From IMG/VR virus record IMGVR_UViG_3300000290_000191: a stretch of DNA of 12,662 bases; one strand, 5' to 3'. Numbering within the stretch: the first letter of the stretch is position 1; the number at the start of each line of letters is the position of its first letter. This document shows positions 2,688-11,600 of this stretch, in pieces. The notes under the pieces are model-generated. The model saw only the letters and a program-made list of their open reading frames with translations, was not told the origin of the DNA and searched no databases. A program made the translations under genes and the position numbers. Origin of the DNA: a virus. Taxonomy: Duplodnaviria > Heunggongvirae > Uroviricota > Caudoviricetes.

Positions 2688-3250
2688 AAGCTGTGTGACG
2701 AAGTAACCACTCTTAACAGCATAACCAATTTTTTACGTACGTAAACTACTAAATGATATTTGTGAGAATGCCACCGAGTGTTCAAAACACCACCACAAAT
2801 ACATAAGAAAACTTCAACAAATAATCAGTTAATAATTTCCGATGTTATTTTTAGTTTGTTTAAATTAAGCTAAAGAATTATAGAGCACTTATAAATAAGT
2901 GCCATTAATATAAATTAGCTAATAGATTTATTTTTGTTCAGACAAGAGCCATGAATAGGATTAGATAGAAAAGGTTCAGATAAAAATAGAGATCTACTTC
3001 ACAAATTAAATGAGAAACTAAAACTTACATCTTGAAATAATCACATTGATTAGATGAATATTTATCGCGCAGTGACATCATTTTTTAATAATAGTTCAAA
3101 AAAANNNNNNNNNNNNNNNNNNNNNNNNNNNNNNNNNNNNNNNNNNNNNNNNNNNNNNNNNNNNNNNNNNNNNNNNNNNNNNNNNNNNNNNNNNNNNNNN
3201 NNNNNNNNNNNNNNNNNNNNNNNNNNNNNNNNNNNNNNNNATCAGTACTG

Positions 3251-4365
3251 ATGGCGATGTCTGCTCAGGCAGCTGAAATTTATAATAAAGACAGTAACAA
3301 GCTGGATCTATACGGGAAAGTTAATGCCAAGCACTACTTCTCCTCTAATGATGCAGATGATGGTGATACTACTTATGCCCGTCTTGGCTTCAAAGGTGAA
3401 ACCCAAATCAACGATCAACTGACTGGTTTCGGTCAGTGGGAATATGAATTCAAAGGCAACCGTGCTGAATCTCAAGGTTCTTCCAAAGACAAAACCCGTC
3501 TTGCATTTGCAGGCCTGAAATTTGGTGATTACGGCTCCATCGATTACGGCCGTAACTACGGTGTAGCATACGACATCGGTGCGTGGACTGACGTNNNNNN
3601 NNNNNNNNNNNNNNNNNNNNNNNNNNNNNNNNNNNNNNNNNNNNNNNNNNNNNNNNNNNNNNNNNNNNNNNNNNNNNNNNNNNNNNNNNNNNNNNNNNNN
3701 NNNNNNNNNNNNNNNNNNNNNNNNNNNNNCGCACTACTGGTGTTGCAACTTATCGTAACAACGACTTCTTTGGTCTGGTCGATGGCCTGAACTTTGCTGC
3801 TCAGTATCAGGGTAAAAATGACCGCACTGACGTAACTGAAGCCAATGGTGATGGTTTCGGTTTCTCCACTACTTATGAGTATGAAGGATTCGGCGTGGGT
3901 GCAACCTATGCTAAATCAGATCGCACTGACGGTCAGGTCGCCTATGGTAAGAGCAAATTCAATGCCTCCGGCAAAAATGCGGAAGTATGGGCTGCAGGCC
4001 TGAAATATGATGCGAACAATATCTATCTGGCTACCACATATTCTGAAACTCAGAATATGACCGTTTTTGGTAATAACCATATTGCAAACAAAGCACAAAA
4101 CTTTGAAGCAGTAGCACAATATCAGTTTGACTTCGGTCTGCGCCCATCTGTTGCTTACCTTCAGTCAAAAGGTAAAGACCTTGGTGTTCATGGTGACCGA
4201 GACTTAGTCAAGTATGTCGATGTCGGTGCTACTTACTACTTTAATAAAAACATGTCTACTTTTGTTGATTACAAAATCAACTTAATTGACGATAGTAAGT
4301 TTACCAAAACAGCTGGTATTGATACCGACGACATCGTCGCTGTAGGTCTGGTTTATCAGTTCTAA
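3251..4365 (+). CDS. nmpC: OmpC/NmpC/OmpD-family general porin (prophage-encoded); 5' end and signal peptide lie inside N-run 3105-3240, second N-run 3595-3729 inside the barrel
   Basis: Translation ...[32 protein letters not shown]...GFGQWEYEF...[30 protein letters not shown]...[30 protein letters not shown]...[21 protein letters not shown]...VAVGLVYQF with terminal Phe is a classical 16-strand porin; frame before and after the second N-run differs, so N-run length is not exact or the gene is disrupted. Confidence 0.88.
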
Positions 4366-5951: not shown

Positions 5952-6827
5952 TCAATGAACGGTATCGAGCAGCTTTAACAGCTCAGGGAATCGGGATTCG
6001 AAGAAATGCGGCTGCGTCTCGCGCGGATTTGCGGGACTGGTGATGTTCTTGCCGAACATGCAGCCTTTCGCTGTCAGCGACCAGAATTTTTTGATGTTGT
6101 TAATCGCGGTACGGCTGTATCGTTCGCGCTGCTCGACGATCCCCAGCTTCACCATCTGGTGATATGCCTGATTAGCTGTCAGGCGGATACCATACTGCTT
6201 CAGCAGTGCACTCAGTGACAGCGTGGGACGGCTTGAGCCATCAGGCGCGTCAGCAGGAGCATCAATGGCATAGCGCGGTGCCAGATTCGGTAAGCCAACA
6301 GCCTCCTGGAGTTTCTGACAGGCACCAAGCACTGAAGAGTTAGACAGGTTTAACTCCCGGCGCATAAAGTCCAGCAGAATCACGCCAGCCTGCATCTTGT
6401 CAGCAGCCTGCCCGGATAATTTTTCCGATGCGCTGGTTACCATATCGAAAGTACGGATCACCTTCAGATGGAATGACGGGCTGATCCACATTGCATAGGC
6501 ATACACCAGTTCTTTGCAGACATACGTCCCCTGGTTATTTCCGCCACGAATAACGTTAACTGGCTCTATATTGACCGAGTTGCAAATCTGCAACTCGCTT
6601 ATTAAACGTTCAGTTTGCTCANNNNNNNNNNNNNNNNNNNNNNNNNNNNNNNNNNNNNNNNNNNNNNNNNNNNNNNNNNNNNNNNNNNNNNNNNNNNNNN
6701 NNNNNNNNNNNNNNGCAGGCTTATGCTTATCCAGAGAACCGGCAGCCCTGTGCAGATCGTTCAGGCTGTAACGCCCATAAGCATCACGACGAACTTCAAT
6801 ACCATCAATGACCATCAGATTATTCAT
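5952..6827 (-). CDS. KilA-N domain protein (Roi / antirepressor-like DNA-binding protein), interrupted by N-run 6622-6714
   Basis: N-terminus [30 protein letters not shown] ... [28 protein letters not shown] resembles KilA-N domain; C-terminal half resembles phage antirepressor C domains; GAGGAG RBS 9 nt upstream of ATG 6827. Confidence 0.78.
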
Positions 6828-6846: not shown

Positions 6847-7245
6847 TCAGGCGGCTGCACCCGCCGTTTTCTCGTACTTACTGATAGTGATCTCGACCTT
6901 CCCTTCCGGGATAACCGGTCCCCACTCCACCAGCATTCTTTTCACCTGGCTGTCGTCTTCCCACACACCCGCGTGGGTCAGGGCGTCAAACAGCGCCTTG
7001 TTATAGTTGTCCAGATCGCGGATCCGGTTATCCGGAGGAAACAACACGATCTCCACTGAAGCAGGTGCCGACGTTGGTTTCGGCATCCCCGCGCCAATCT
7101 GGCGGGCAATGGTTTCAATTGATGGCCAGCACACACCTTCGTCATTACTGAAATCAGCCAGGCGGGCCATAATTGCCACGCTGGATAATTTCATGCCTGA
7201 TGCAGCGCAACCATCCCATACATAGCCGGTTAATTTAGTGCTCAT
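6847..7245 (-). CDS. rusA: RusA-like Holliday-junction resolvase core with atypical N-terminus resembling an HTH_36-type DNA-binding segment (possible in-frame fusion)
   Basis: Residues about 60-132 (SVEIVLFPPDNRIRDLDNYNKALFDALTHAGVWEDDSQV...) carry the RusA acidic catalytic motifs (D-x-D, DD); residues 1-52 (MKLSSVAIMARLADFSNDEGVCWPSIETIARQIG) resemble the N-terminal HTH of phage replication initiators, not RusA; AGAGG RBS present. Confidence 0.7.
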   Translation of the reverse strand: MSTKLTGYVWDGCAASGMKLSSVAIMARLADFSNDEGVCWPSIETIARQIGAGMPKPTSAPASVEIVLFPPDNRIRDLDNYNKALFDALTHAGVWEDDSQVKRMLVEWGPVIPEGKVEITISKYEKTAGAAA

Positions 7246-7593
7246 GACCGACCTCTATTTCCCTGAATTTACGACGAAACTGTTCGAGCGGGCTGAAGCA
7301 CTCATGCTCATAGCCTTCGCGGAGGTAGATAACACGTTGTGTTTCCGGTTCCCAACGAATGACTCTGACGGGCACTCCGTAGTGATCTTTGAACCAGCGG
7401 TTAACTTGTCGCAAAGGACTGTCTCCTTCTGCCGGTTGAAATCACCCACAGCCCACTCAGCAAAGCTGTGGGTTACAATTTCCCTGTCACCTGGTACATT
7501 CACTGCATAGCAATATTCCACCTTCGCTTTTCCACCCGGTACAGGAAGCGCAATCAGTTGCGAGCGACGGTAGTGTGTTGTTAAACTGTTCAT
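7235..7593 (-). pseudogene. Frameshifted hypothetical nin-region gene (about 119 codons if the frame is restored)
   Basis: ORF 7255-7593 gives protein-like N-terminus [52 protein letters not shown] then junk; a second frame from about 7432 gives protein-like [67 protein letters not shown] ending at 7235 with an 11-nt overlap onto the rusA-like start; GGAGAAA RBS before ATG 7593. Confidence 0.45.
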
Positions 7594-8141
7594 GCGTTAG
7601 TTTCTCCACAGTCACGACACGCCACGGCGCCCGGAGCTGCACACTCGCGGGCGTCATTACTTTCTGAAATGCAAAAGATTTTGTAGACCAGTGCTGCATG
7701 CTCCTGCAGCTTCGAAATTGAGAGATACAGCTCGTCGTTAATTGCTGTCTTCTCATGCGGTTCCACTACACCGTCTTCGATTGCTGAACGAATCTGTTTT
7801 GAATAACTGCCGATCTGTTCAATGACTTCCAGCAGACGCTGGTTAATATCGGCGTTGTCCACATCCTCGACGTCAGGAAGAGACACAAATACGCCATTTG
7901 CAGACTGCGCCACAGCATCAGCAATGAAGTGAGTGCCACCAGCACGCTGTAAAACCATTGCCCATCCCAGCGGGAAAATCTGATCGCCATCGGCACGAAG
8001 GCGGTTAAATAATGCGTTCTCTGTTACGTCCAGCCAGTCAGCAGCTTCAGCGTAACCCCCCGGCAACGCTGCGATAGTTTTTCTGACAGCTTTCACGTAC
8101 CACTCAGGCTGTTTTTCTATTTTCCAGTGATGCTTACCCAC
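7590..8141 (-). CDS. CII-like regulator with central HTH (YdaT/Phage_CP76-type)
   Basis: HTH-like segment [22 protein letters not shown] comparable to lambda CII; positioned directly downstream of the cro-like gene; best start is GTG at 8141 preceded by GAGGAG with 6-nt spacing (track start ATG 8252 has no RBS and overlaps cro); ATGA overlap with next gene at 7590-7593. Confidence 0.6.
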
Positions 8142-8169
8142 GGTTAACTCCTCGTTTCTGTGGTTACGT

Positions 8170-8433
8170 TTACGCAGCTGAACCGCTAACTTTTGAATAG
8201 CACTCAGGTAATCCATCATTTGGATTGGGGTAAATATCAGGACGCAGTTCATGAGGGGTCACGGACCAGTTTCCCAACTCACAAAGTTGTAAAACCCGTT
8301 CTGACGGGACTTGATTGTTAATTACCCAATTAGCGACGGATTGAGTGGACTTAAAACCAAAGTGACGGGCTACTTCAGATAAAGATTTTCCCGCAGCTTT
8401 TACTGCTTTCTCTGTGTAGTTTTGAGATGACAT
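8170..8433 (-). CDS. Cro-like small HTH regulator (YdaS-type)
   Basis: 87-aa product with HTH-like GKSLSEVARHFGFKSTQSVANWVINNQ; divergent from the cI-like repressor across an operator-rich spacer; AGGAGA RBS 5 nt upstream of ATG 8433. Confidence 0.7.
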   Translation of the reverse strand: MSSQNYTEKAVKAAGKSLSEVARHFGFKSTQSVANWVINNQVPSERVLQLCELGNWSVTPHELRPDIYPNPNDGLPECYSKVSGSAA

Positions 8434-8441
8434 ACCTTTCT

Positions 8442-8502
8442 CCTCTGAAATTCAGAGGGATGATGCTACTTAAAATAGCAGAATGCAACTACTTAAAATA
8501 GA
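8442..8502. promoter_or_regulatory. OR-like divergent promoter/operator region between cro-like and cI-like genes
   Basis: Perfect 17-bp palindrome CCTCTGAA-A-TTCAGAGG (8442-8458) overlapping the cro RBS, plus two related near-palindromes GCTACTTAAAATAGC (8465-8479) and ACTACTTAAAATAGA (8488-8502) spaced 23 bp apart. Confidence 0.5.
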
Positions 8503-9244
8503 AATGACTAGCGTATGTGATGCGAGTAACCTTCTACCTATGGTAGAAGAACAGAAGTATCCAGATTTCGCCAAGAGACTAAACGAGCTAATGACAAACA
8601 AGGGAATTTCTGTCACCCAACTCAAAAGTCTTGTGGGCGTTACATATGAAATGGCGCGGCGATACACAATCGGCGCTGCGAAGCCTCGTGCCTCTGTCAT
8701 GAATAAACTTGCATTGGCTCTGGGGGTATCAGCTTCATATTTAGAATATGGTGTTGGCGAGAGAGAAGGATGTAAGGAAATGGCAAGCATCCCCAATCCA
8801 ACAAAACCCGATGTATACAGGATAGAAGTTTTGGATCTTAGCGTTAGCGCAGGACCTGGAACCTATATGCTTTCAGACTATGTTGATGTGCTCTACGCCA
8901 TTGAGTTCACAACAGAGCATGCCCGTTCTCTTTTCGGTAATCGTTCTCAAGATGATATTAAAGTTATGACTGTAAATGGCGACAGCATGTCCCCTACTCT
9001 AGTTTCCGGAGATCGACTGTTTGTCGACATTTCTGTTCGCAACTTCCAAACTGATGGTGTTTACTCTTTCGTTTATGGTAAGACGTTCCACGTTAAACGT
9101 CTACAAATGCAAGGCAACAAACTCGCCGTTCTTTCGGATAATCCAGCCTATGAGAAATGGTACATTGATGAGAAGTCCCAAGATCAACTTTATGTTATGG
9201 GCAAAGCATTGATACACGAATCAATTAAATACAACCGGCTTTAG
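8483..9244 (+). CDS. cI: CI-like prophage repressor: N-terminal HTH and C-terminal S24 (LexA-like) autopeptidase domain
   Basis: HTH-like LNELMTNKGISVTQLKSLVGVTYEMARRY; Ala-Gly candidate cleavage site in SVSAGPG; Ser nucleophile motif GDSMSP and Lys in HVKRL; start uncertain (8483, 8504 or 8540; none has a clear SD, consistent with a leaderless PRM-type transcript). Confidence 0.9.
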   Translation: MQLLKIEMTSVCDASNLLPMVEEQKYPDFAKRLNELMTNKGISVTQLKSLVGVTYEMARRYTIGAAKPRASVMNKLALALGVSASYLEYGVGEREGCKEMASIPNPTKPDVYRIEVLDLSVSAGPGTYMLSDYVDVLYAIEFTTEHARSLFGNRSQDDIKVMTVNGDSMSPTLVSGDRLFVDISVRNFQTDGVYSFVYGKTFHVKRLQMQGNKLAVLSDNPAYEKWYIDEKSQDQLYVMGKALIHESIKYNRL

Positions 9245-9414
9245 TTCTTCGTTTAGACTATAGAACTAAAGGTGAAAAAATAATATTTATCAAGCAAGTG
9301 CTATTACTAATAGTTGTTTTACTCTCTTATTTTTATTAAACATTATCATTAACAATATAAAATAATCACCCAGCGTAAATTACAATATGCTGGGGGTCGA
9401 AAGGATAGAGAAAT

Positions 9415-10491
9415 ATGACAAAATCAATTTGTTTTTTTAATCATAAAGGTGGGGTAAGTAAAACCACAACAACCTTCAATCTTGGATGGGCACTTGCGGA
9501 TGAAGGCAAGAAAGTATTGATGGTTGACCTTGATTCGCAATGTAATCTAACAGGAATGGTTCTTGGCTATGAAAAGATTGATGAGGGTTTAGATTCTTTT
9601 TATTCTAGCAGAGATAACTTAACTCTTGGACCTATTGTAGAATATTTGATTAATGGCGGACAACCTGAAGCATACCTTGAAAAAGAAACGGGAAAATTAC
9701 ACCCTACACTGCATGAAAACCTTCTGCTTCTTCCCGGACATTTAGATGTTTCGGACTTAGATTCACAGATAAGTGTTTCTCTAAAAATTGCTGCTGGTAT
9801 TCCTGCTACAAGAAATATACCAGGGAACCTGCCAAAAATATTACAGCTAATCGCCATGAAGAATAATATTGATTACATTCTTTATGATCTCAGCCCTAAT
9901 GTTGGAGGTTTAAATGAAGTAGTTCTCATGTCAAGTGACTATTTTATCGTACCTGTAGCTCCAGACTTTTTTTGCTGGCAAGCAATTCGCTCTCTCTCAA
10001 AAAATATACCTCGCTGGCACAAAGAATTAGCATTATTTAAAGAAAATAATGATGGTAACTCTTCACAATCAATTAAAAATGCACCGCAGTTTCTAGGTAT
10101 GATTCAGCAGAGATACAGGCCGCGTAAAGGAGCACCTGTAAAATCTTTCGAAAAATGGATGGCAGCTATCCGTGATGCTGTTGATTCGATCTTAGTGCCA
10201 AATCTAGAAAAAATTACCTGCATAATTCCACGAGATAAAGTGCAACATGCAATTAACAAAACAACAGTCAGTGGAGATTTATCAGCCTATGATCTTGCGC
10301 ATATTTCCGATTTCAACTCATTAATCGCAATAAGCCAACAACTAGCGACACCTGTTTTCTCCATCAGTGATCAGCAAATTCGCGATTCAGGGCAATTTGG
10401 GCATGCCTTAAATACAATGAAATCAAGCAGAGACGCCTTTAACGAACAATTTAAAGGGCTGGCTCAACGAGTTCTAGAACTTACAAAGTAA
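9415..10491 (+). CDS. Orphan ParA/MinD-family deviant Walker-A ATPase (358 aa) in the cI-downstream moron slot
   Basis: Deviant Walker A KGGVSKTT at residues 11-18, A-prime motif MVDLDSQCN, Walker B DYILYDLSP, and C-terminal region typical of ParA; no ParB-like gene or obvious centromere repeats adjacent; AT-rich relative to the phage backbone. Confidence 0.85.
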   Translation: MTKSICFFNHKGGVSKTTTTFNLGWALADEGKKVLMVDLDSQCNLTGMVLGYEKIDEGLDSFYSSRDNLTLGPIVEYLINGGQPEAYLEKETGKLHPTLHENLLLLPGHLDVSDLDSQISVSLKIAAGIPATRNIPGNLPKILQLIAMKNNIDYILYDLSPNVGGLNEVVLMSSDYFIVPVAPDFFCWQAIRSLSKNIPRWHKELALFKENNDGNSSQSIKNAPQFLGMIQQRYRPRKGAPVKSFEKWMAAIRDAVDSILVPNLEKITCIIPRDKVQHAINKTTVSGDLSAYDLAHISDFNSLIAISQQLATPVFSISDQQIRDSGQFGHALNTMKSSRDAFNEQFKGLAQRVLELTK

Positions 10492-10498
10492 TGCATGT

Positions 10499-10530
10499 GC
10501 CCGGCCGCATAACCGGGCTTTACTCTTCTT
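10499..10530 (+). terminator. Candidate intrinsic terminator after the ParA-like gene
   Basis: GCCCGG(10499-10504)/CCGGGC(10513-10518) stem with 8-nt loop followed by T-rich tract tttactcttctttc. Confidence 0.45.
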
Positions 10531-10686
10531 TCTCCCTGATTAATCTCATAAAAAACTCCCTCCTCATAATTCACTATGCTCAATACCTACTCCAACTTCG
10601 TGCGATATTTTCAGTTTACAGCATAGTAAATCAGCAAAAACATTTAACTTTCAATTAATTATAGAAAAATCATAGACAACAACAAA

Positions 10687-10736
10687 TATCTACTTTTTGT
10701 TGTTGATTTTTGCTACTTTAAGTAGCAACATAATGT
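10687..10736 (+). promoter_or_regulatory. OL/PL-like operator-promoter candidate
   Basis: Perfect 15-bp palindrome GCTACTT-T-AAGTAGC (10712-10726), one mismatch from the OR site at 8465-8479, plus half-site TCTACTT (10689-10695) and a 10-bp inverted repeat CAACAACAAA/TTTGTTGTTG; -10-like CATAAT at 10729-10734; lies 2.2 kb from OR, bracketing cI and the ParA-like gene. Confidence 0.4.
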
Positions 10737-10817
10737 AAGCTATCACGGACAGGCAGGACGCCCACGAAGTAGCCGCCGGTGGCGTATGAATGACCGGATG
10801 ATTCGTTAGCAACAAAA

Positions 10818-10851
10818 AAGCGCCCTACAGGACGCTTAGCTCTTTAACAAT
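10818..10851 (+). promoter_or_regulatory. boxA-like antitermination element preceded by a short hairpin
   Basis: GCTCTTTAACAAT at 10839-10851 matches the rrn/nut boxA core GCTCTTTAACAA exactly; hairpin AAGCG/CGCTT (10818-10837) immediately upstream; 31 nt before ORF 10882. Confidence 0.4.
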
Positions 10852-10881
10852 CTTAGTATCCCCGTAACAAAAGAGGGTTCT

Positions 10882-11175
10882 ATGGTCATATTCTGTGCTT
10901 ACGTTCATCCTAATGGATTTTTTATCAGCACCAACCAACAAGACGAATTCTGGATTCTACTTAGTAAGCAGGTCGGATGGGGACGATTCTGTCTAATCCG
11001 ACCAGAATCAGAATTTACAGAGAATGGAGGGCTTTTTGAATTACGTGAAATACGTCCGGCAGATGGTCAAGCCCCTGACCAAGTAATCGAATCGTCAGCT
11101 GTTTTATGGCGTCGGCAGGAAGCGTTCGAAGCTGAGAGAGTAATTTCTTCTTATCTTCAGTCGTGGCAGAAGTAG
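10882..11175 (+). CDS. Hypothetical 97-aa protein, first ORF downstream of the PL-like/boxA region (not N-like in sequence)
   Basis: ORF with AGAGGG RBS 4 nt upstream; product lacks an arginine-rich motif; overlaps an antisense ORF (11015-11233), so the coding strand is unresolved. Confidence 0.38.
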   Translation: MVIFCAYVHPNGFFISTNQQDEFWILLSKQVGWGRFCLIRPESEFTENGGLFELREIRPADGQAPDQVIESSAVLWRRQEAFEAERVISSYLQSWQK

Positions 11176-11276
11176 AACTATTGATGATACGTTCAAGTTC
11201 ACAGAGAGTCTCATCATGCAATCTTATTGTCATAATCCCAAGAATAGCTTTAAGACCTCCATCATCACGAATGAAA

Positions 11277-11600
11277 TCAATTNNNNNNNNNNNNNNNNNN
11301 NNNNNNNNNNNNNNNNNNNNNNNNNNNNNNNNNNNNNNNNNNNNNNNNNNNNNNNNNNNNNNNNNNNNNNNNNNNNNNNNNNNNTTCAGGAATATTTATA
11401 TTTATGCCATCCAAGTAATAATCAAGAGCATTCTTAATCAAGCCATGTTCTTCGAGATAAATTAAGTTCGAAATTAGGACATTATCATCTCCAAATGCGT
11501 CACGAACAGACTGCAACGCATCATCAGAAATTTCATAAGGATGAGCATCATACAGTATTTGTAACAACTGCCTTTGTGCACTTCTATCAAATTTGTCCAT
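11277..11600 (-). CDS. Small hypothetical protein with winged-helix-like N-terminal region (DUF2513-like pattern), interrupted by N-run 11283-11384
   Basis: N-terminus MDKFDRSAQRQLLQILYDAHPYEISDDALQSVRDAFGDDNVLISNLIYLEEHGLIKNALDYYL has the L-x-x-L-x-E-x-G-L-I pattern of small wHTH proteins; GGTGA RBS 9 nt upstream of ATG 11600; the 3' end depends on the true gap length and may instead continue in the frame of ORF 11015-11233. Confidence 0.45.
   Translation of the reverse strand: MDKFDRSAQRQLLQILYDAHPYEISDDALQSVRDAFGDDNVLISNLIYLEEHGLIKNALDYYLDGININIPEXXXXXXXXXXXXXXXXXXXXXXXXXXXXXXXXXXN

Follow-up and report, generated by a model that had tools for sequence, protein, structure and literature searches.

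A 15-bp dyad as the very probable operator of an uncharacterised Escherichia coli prophage repressor, with a ParA-like gene in an exchangeable cargo slot

The stretch of DNA analysed here (12,662 nucleotides, IMG/VR record IMGVR_UViG_3300000290_000191; hereafter the window) is from a lambdoid prophage of Escherichia coli. A 15-bp dyad that recurs in its immunity region very probably serves the prophage's uncharacterised repressor, CI, as operator in a layout like that of lambda, with a ParA-like gene in a slot for swappable cargo. Taken as a whole, the region is with high probability an immunity switch built on the lambda plan and belonging to a DLP12/SfV-like lambdoid prophage, as judged from its sequence and that of its relatives. 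Bases 7084-11282, which take in the whole immunity region under study, are 100% identical to NZ_AP022222, in which the prophage is located at the argU tRNA and has genes of DLP12 type and CPS-53 type (intD, quuD, essD, yfdP-T). The genes of the switch and the sites around them are listed below; OR and OL denote the right and left operators in lambda terms, PR and PL the early promoters that they would cover and PRM the promoter of repressor maintenance. Dyads are given without a strand.
8170-8433, minus strand: cro-like gene, 87 amino acids, YdaS-type helix-turn-helix (HTH) protein (Pfam YdaS_toxin, 2e-11; phrog_35, 'transcriptional repressor')
8465-8479: OR1, GCTACTTAAAATAGC, within the predicted PR spacer
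8488-8502: OR2, ACTACTTAAAATAGA, 23 bp from OR1
8533-8547: OR3 candidate, TCTACCTATGGTAGA, an exact core match centred on the A of the cI ATG
8540-9244, plus strand: cI repressor gene (RefSeq start 8540), 234 amino acids, N-terminal HTH and C-terminal S24 peptidase domain
9300-9314: weak candidate site, GCTATTACTAATAGT, an exact core match about 100 bp before parA, in an AT-rich spacer
9415-10491, plus strand: parA, ParA/MinD-superfamily ATPase, 358 amino acids
10499-10518, plus strand: terminator-like hairpin, a terminator call, closing the cI-parA unit
10689-10703: OL2, TCTACTTTTTGTTGT, degenerate with one core mismatch, 23 bp from OL1, the spacing found at OR
10712-10726: OL1, GCTACTTTAAGTAGC, a perfect palindrome within the predicted PL spacer

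The first-pass annotation had drawn attention to the perfect palindrome now called OL1 and to two near-copies of it between cro and cI, and all three are present in the sequence as described. Its two OR sites and one OL site stand, and the count now rises to three OR and two OL sites. Searched as the 15-mer GCTACTTNAAGTAGC with up to three mismatches, the motif gives 3 matches in the window against 0.37 expected, a number reached in 2 of 200 shuffles. The core CTAYNNNNNRTAG (CTAY-N5-RTAG) gives 5 exact matches against 0.35 expected, reached in none of 200 shuffles, and is a better descriptor of the dyad than the 15-mer. A similar density of the motif in unrelated sequence had been named as grounds for abandoning the proposal; all 5 exact core matches lie in 8466-10725, with none in the other ~10 kb of the window, and one-mismatch core matches elsewhere are scattered at background level. 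A half-site derived from 25 non-redundant sites reads n-C-T-A-C-T-T, with positions 2-5 nearly invariant. The centres of OR1 and OL1 are 2247 bp apart. Over 46 nucleotides, 8460-8505 and 10686-10731 form an inverted homology with 78% complementarity, which argues that the OR and OL regions are inverted copies of one promoter-operator design. The candidate at 9300-9314 occurs only in near-identical ParA-type loci and thus gains no independent support; either weak binding of CI or mere coincidence would account for it.

Judged by its domains, CI is a lambdoid-type repressor with an XRE HTH and a LexA/S24 domain with predicted self-cleavage. The N-terminal HTH scores 25 bits against Pfam HTH_3 (cut-off 23) and 6e-50 against phrog_4; the C-terminal part scores 60.5 bits against Peptidase_S24 and contains Ala104-Gly105, as expected of a cleavage site, and Ser149 (in GDSM) and Lys186, as expected of the catalytic dyad. 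Association of the motif with this protein was examined in viral contigs that contain the perfect palindrome, 120 loci in all, which were sorted by repressor helix with tblastn; most of them are chance matches. An N-terminal helix of the form [ST]YEM[AV]RRY is encoded in 26 of the 120 contigs. Two or more additional core sites are present within 3 kb of the palindrome in all of these 26, as against 2 of the other 94 (Mann-Whitney p = 1e-17). The helix contigs represent about ten lineages (designated below by L numbers), whose N-terminal domains are 42-100% identical and are joined to several different C-terminal domains.

The lambda-like arrangement of OR, cI with cargo, and OL that had been proposed from the window is supported by the motif scan and by the geometry in these relatives. 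In most lineages OR1, OR2 and OR3 are at -68, -45 and 0 from the cI ATG, and OR1 is a perfect palindrome. OR2 is degenerate in some lineages, and OR3 is found at position 0, with varying inner bases, in every lineage with a mapped cI start. The most diverged lineages depart from this scheme: OR1 is at -66 in L039 and at -77 in L077, and L088/L048 have four sites at other spacings. On the other side, OL2 and OL1 are 23 bp apart across lineages, near +790/+813 in loci that lack cargo and 1.7-2.3 kb away in those that have it. In the lineages without cargo (L027, L034, L074 and L094) cI is followed directly by a terminator and then by OL. OL2, degenerate in the window, is exact (TCTACTTTTTGTAGT) in L005, L017, L027, L034 and L074.

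Repressors related to CI through the C-terminal domain (75-92% identical there) that carry another N-terminal domain lack the motif; these are found in a Citrobacter prophage, an Enterobacter prophage, LMessi and HK639. In the three of these four relatives whose OR was read, other dyads take its place: ATAACC-N2-GGTTAT (HK639), repeats of the AATAACTT type (LMessi) and TTAAC-type sequences (the Citrobacter prophage). A scan of genome contigs with CI as the query gave two loci only, both with another N-terminal domain, and these were used as negative controls. The motif accompanies the N-terminal helix even where the C-terminal domains are unrelated, and it is absent once the N-terminal domain is replaced; operator specificity thus appears to be set by the DNA-binding domain of the repressor.

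Exchange of the DNA downstream of cI delimits the cassette. The cro-OR-cI module is present in 206 of 5426 complete E. coli genomes. In 109 of the 206 this parA comes next and the module matches at 99% identity or more; in most of the others DNA identity is about 93% and the match ends at the cI stop codon. Three loci exemplify the alternatives.
L005: two small unknown genes after cI
L006, 6310-7395: a ParA-family protein, 23% identical to the ParA of the window, after cI
L007: two other unknown genes after cI
All three keep OR1 and OR2 and have an OL1-type dyad just past the cargo, CI being 98-99% identical in the alternative-cargo loci examined. When four OL regions are aligned their left sides are unrelated and homology starts at the TCTAC of OL2, so the cargo junction is the interval from the cI stop codon to OL2. 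The same operators are found with four cargo types and with none, and OL1 is kept after every cargo type. The earlier placing of the ParA-like gene inside the immunity cassette is therefore correct as to position and probable expression: cargo is swapped while CI and the OL sites stay, which makes the gene a cargo in the sense of rexAB in lambda. The interval between cI and N is a known mosaic hotspot that houses rexAB and bstA (PMC8585504), and by its position parA occupies that slot.

The cI-parA spacer bears on how parA might be expressed. Calling of intrinsic terminators gave none within 9245-9414 and one past parA; since parA lies downstream of cI, its expression in lysogens, by putative co-transcription with cI, would be expected. 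Weak promoter-like sites are present upstream of parA at 9337-9366. The segment 9236-9420 folds unusually stably (z = -3.0). One hairpin in it is directly 3' of the cI stop codon, and a GC-rich stem, CCCAGC...GCTGGG, is just upstream of the parA ribosome-binding site; neither hairpin has a T-run after it.

Promoters were placed by footprint alignment, in which blocks outside the dyads are constant and the spacers between them diverge. The predicted hexamers are as follows.
8460-8465, minus strand: PR -10, CATCAT (CATTAT in most lineages), placed by footprint alignment and coordinates
8483-8488, minus strand: PR -35, TTGCAT, 17 bp from the -10, with the TTG beside OR2 conserved in all lineages
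8504-8509, plus strand: PRM -35, ATGACT, 1 bp from OR2
8527-8532, plus strand: PRM -10, TAACCT (TAATCT elsewhere; TAAnCT conserved), 17 bp past ATGACT and 7 nucleotides before the cI ATG
10703-10708, plus strand: PL -35, TTGATT, of which TTGAT does not vary among eight lineages (the sixth base being T, or A in one)
10726-10731, plus strand: PL -10, CAACAT, with CAnnAT 17 bp from TTGATT in 8 of 8 lineages, mirroring PR
At the predicted PRM -35 the sequence AAATGACT is near-invariant across diverged lineages, the exceptions being one AAATGACG and one AAGTGACC, and the 17-bp spacer that follows ATGACT is unrelated between them. An alternative PL -10, CATAAT at 10729-10734, would require a 20-bp spacer. 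A PRM -10 so close to the ATG predicts a leaderless cI mRNA, with which the lack of a Shine-Dalgarno sequence at cI is consistent. The right arm of OR3 spells the codons ATG-GTA-GA, which may explain why every repressor of the group with a mapped start begins Met-Val-Glu.

Together these positions suggest how the switch would work. CI dimers would bind the 15-bp dyads nCTACTTnAAGTAGn, perhaps cooperatively, and the YdaS-type Cro would probably bind them too. With OR1, in the PR spacer, and OR2, which abuts the PR -35, both filled, the operon of cro, the cII-like gene and replication genes would be off. From OR2, next to the PRM -35, CI could activate its own promoter. OR3 lies over the PRM start and the cI ATG; filled at high CI concentration, it would turn PRM down and provide negative autoregulation. 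The cI mRNA from PRM would be leaderless. Filling of OL1, in the PL spacer, and OL2, abutting the PL -35, would likewise keep the leftward early operon off, and lysogens would express parA as an accessory gene in the manner of rexAB or bstA. Looping between OL and OR, as raised by the first-pass annotation, is plausible, given a pair of sites at the same spacing on each side; the OR-OL distance ranges from 0.8 to 2.4 kb among homoimmune relatives, so any loop must tolerate that range.

Whether CI is the protein that these dyads serve has to be weighed against other candidates. The dyads might be primarily operators of the YdaS-type Cro, or be shared equally, with CI recognising something else. 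Cro-like homologues are 66-100% identical and adjoin the same operators in most lineages, the family with the conserved KS[TV]QSVANW helix thereby co-occurring with the motif, and a YdaS protein footprints the OR of CP-933P (PMC8630535). We nevertheless regard this as unlikely. The motif and its geometry persist in L077, where no Cro homologue is detectable; the Cro homologue of L088/L048 is 28% identical and has a different helix; and the CI helix is kept in L077, L088 and L048 alike. These lineages, in which helix and sites are retained although Cro does not co-vary, would thus favour CI as a binder. An OR3 on the cI start and an OL beside the cI unit are, moreover, the layout of a maintenance repressor. 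Cro and CI use the same sites in lambda-type switches, so that a role for Cro would refine the assignment of the dyads to CI and not replace it.

Two further readings have very little probability in our view. Because the dyads flank parA, and a weak core match (9300-9314) precedes it, they could be thought to belong to a partition module, as its centromere-like or autoregulatory sites. L005, L007, L017, L027, L034, L074 and L094 have these sites with unchanged spacing and lack any ParA. No ParB-like open reading frame and no centromere repeat array adjoins parA or lies near it, which therefore does not qualify as part of a ParABS system; and the protein has no N-terminal HTH, its deviant Walker A motif (KGGVSKT) starting at residue 11. 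Just as hard to credit is the idea that these palindromes arose by chance in AT-rich intergenic DNA, or that they act there as RNA hairpin or terminator elements. The perfect 15-mer does occur in many unrelated viral contigs, as the 94 of 120 without the repressor helix attest. Chance is at odds with the excess of core matches in the window and their confinement to the immunity region, and is already refuted by the comparative data, in which the geometry is fixed across lineages. As for RNA structure, substitutions in the sites are non-compensatory (GCAAC...GTAGC in L005, TTTTGG in L007), a 7-bp stem with a 1-nucleotide loop cannot fold, and no T-run follows.

Several observations tell against CI operators in a lambda-type switch, or against parts of that assignment. 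Many of the 26 helix contigs are near-identical, which reduces the independent sample to the ten or so lineages. In most of these Cro co-varies with the motif, and CI and Cro are not fully separable as binders. OR3 is partly coding, and its right arm could be conserved on account of the Met-Val-Glu codons. In the window OL2 has lost one arm (GTTG instead of GTAG). The predicted hexamers CATCAT, CAACAT and TAACCT are weak consensus matches, and a consensus promoter scan called neither PR nor PL. What the scan did call was another PRM-like site, TTAAAA-18-TAAAAT at 8470-8499, inside OR1 and OR2; we set it aside in favour of hexamers conserved outside the operators. A longer CI is also possible, as an in-frame ATG at 8504, 12 codons upstream, is open in every lineage examined. 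That ATG coincides with the predicted PRM -35 ATGACT, and we kept 8540 as the cI start because the 12 extra codons vary freely except over the predicted hexamers and OR3.

Comparison with characterised switches places the assignment to a lambda-type CI switch in context. As in lambda, divergent PR and PRM (predicted here) are associated with three dyads; the repressor gene is followed by cargo, which lysogens here would be expected to express, by a terminator (tIMM in lambda) and by OL/PL, some 2.2-2.4 kb from OR; pairs of sites are spaced at 23-24 bp; cI is leaderless (here by prediction); and the repressor has an S24 C-terminus, with self-cleavage predicted here. The differences are that the operator is unrelated and 15 bp long instead of 17 bp, that OR3 is 45 bp from OR2 and lies on the translation start and the predicted transcription start and not on the PRM hexamers, that only two OL sites are detected (OL1-3 in lambda), that Cro has a YdaS-type HTH and the cII analogue is of CP76/YmfL type, and that the cargo is a ParA-like ATPase and not RexAB. 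In CP-933P/Sp12 a YdaS-type Cro and a leaderless repressor compete for shared operators, as established by electrophoretic mobility shift assay and footprinting (PMC8630535). Shared with that prophage are a YdaS-family Cro analogue opposite a leaderless repressor (again predicted in our case), cargo downstream of the repressor (there a co-transcribed toxin-antitoxin pair, PaaA2-ParE2) and a separate PL/OL analogue. CP-933P differs in that its repressor, PaaR2, has no S24 domain, its operator consensus is GTTTAGTAA and its cII analogue is YdaT.

The CI of the window is 59% identical to that of HK639 and 42% to that of HK022, mainly in the C-terminal domain, and HK639 too has several genes between cI and pL. 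The recognition helix differs, HK639 has other operators, as described above, and both phages use put-RNA antitermination. An accessory gene between repressor and PL/N is a feature common to BTP1 (cI-bstA) and to the P22-like phages ST160 and SE1 (c2-orf24-orf23). Immunity specificities and phage backbones are different in all of these, and BstA is unrelated to ParA; in ST160 and SE1 exactly that slot, between c2 and the N-like gp24, holds a ParA-like protein 60% identical to ours (3001-4074 in ST160, our L130).

ParA itself matches AAA_31 (2e-29, 103 bits), CbiA (52.9 bits) and, over its full length, phrog_164 (phage ParA-like); the closest solved structure, 3pg5, is of an uncharacterised protein. 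The GC content is 29-39% in parA and 43-45% in cI. The NCBIfam partition equivalogs all score far below their cut-offs. PADLOC gave no full-length match to a defence model, only 38-48 P-loop residues matching PDC-M28B, and a search of PADLOC, Pfam and NCBIfam gave no convincing defence or partition assignment for the alternative cargos either. We found no study of this ParA cargo in the literature. Copies about 30% identical are present in Pf1-like filamentous phages, and none of the recurrent copies (ST160/SE1, L006, Pf1-like) has a ParB partner or matches a known defence model. We suggest tentatively, as a possibility that we would not rate highly, that ParA, expressed in lysogens, provides a new kind of accessory function, such as the exclusion of incoming phage or plasmid DNA, and was apparently captured repeatedly in the slot next to the repressor.

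Three further features flank the switch.
Annotated 7590-8141, open frame to 8252, minus strand: cII analogue, CP76/YmfL-type
8442-8458: perfect 17-bp palindrome, CCTCTGAAATTCAGAGG, between the predicted PR -10 and the cro start
10742-10853, plus strand: conserved PL leader with boxA-like GCTCTTTAACAA
The 17-bp palindrome is unlike the operator in sequence. The predicted PR transcript would start inside it, and it also overlaps the Shine-Dalgarno sequence of cro. Symmetric substitutions preserve it in L005, L045 and L017; in L074 a T-G pair gives the plus strand the better pairing.

Unannotated DNA in the corresponding place in SfV, SfII, SfIV, ST64B, mEp460, phiNP and others matches the PL leader at 83-98% identity, and SfV and its relatives carry this stretch ahead of the leftward early genes. 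The GCTCTTTAACAA of the leader is presumably a boxA-like element, by likeness to the consensus. A hairpin in the leader, at 10818-10837, scores as a minus-strand terminator; GCTCTTTAACAA comes after it. The open reading frame at 10882-11175 (97 amino acids, in the position of SfV orf33) was considered as an N-like gene. As it lacks a family match, a RefSeq annotation and an arginine-rich N-terminus, we do not claim it as a gene, and an N-type antiterminator is improbable. Antisense to the PL transcript is a minus-strand phrog_3983 gene of 23-25% GC, interrupted in the window by a run of N at 11283-11384 and intact, with 167 amino acids, in NZ_AP022222. Reading that run as an insertion of about 100 bp splitting the gene was rejected, since it is masked sequence; the window has six masked N runs (1150-1198, 2023-2211, 3105-3240, 3595-3729, 6622-6714 and 11283-11384). 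Rfam has no family for the whole window at the gathering threshold, nor for 8300-11100 at E up to 1.

The feature is real but ordinary, and the known picture of lambdoid switches is unchanged by it. What it adds is a defined operator, nCTACTTnAAGTAGn, together with a recognition helix, [ST]YEM[AV]RRY, for an immunity group that ~4% of complete E. coli genomes carry; the same group is also found in several other phage backbones, and our searches yielded no experimentally characterised phage of this specificity. The repressors that keep the C-terminal domain, change the N-terminal one and with it the operator are a natural domain swap that cleanly illustrates how repressors evolve by modules. 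A further point is the operator on the start codon, as one half-site appears to fix the Met-Val-Glu codons of a predicted leaderless repressor gene. The cargo slot, finally, has precise boundaries that can be used to mine for lysogen-expressed genes, orphan ParA-like ATPases among them, and this recurrent orphan ParA-like cargo is the remaining lead.

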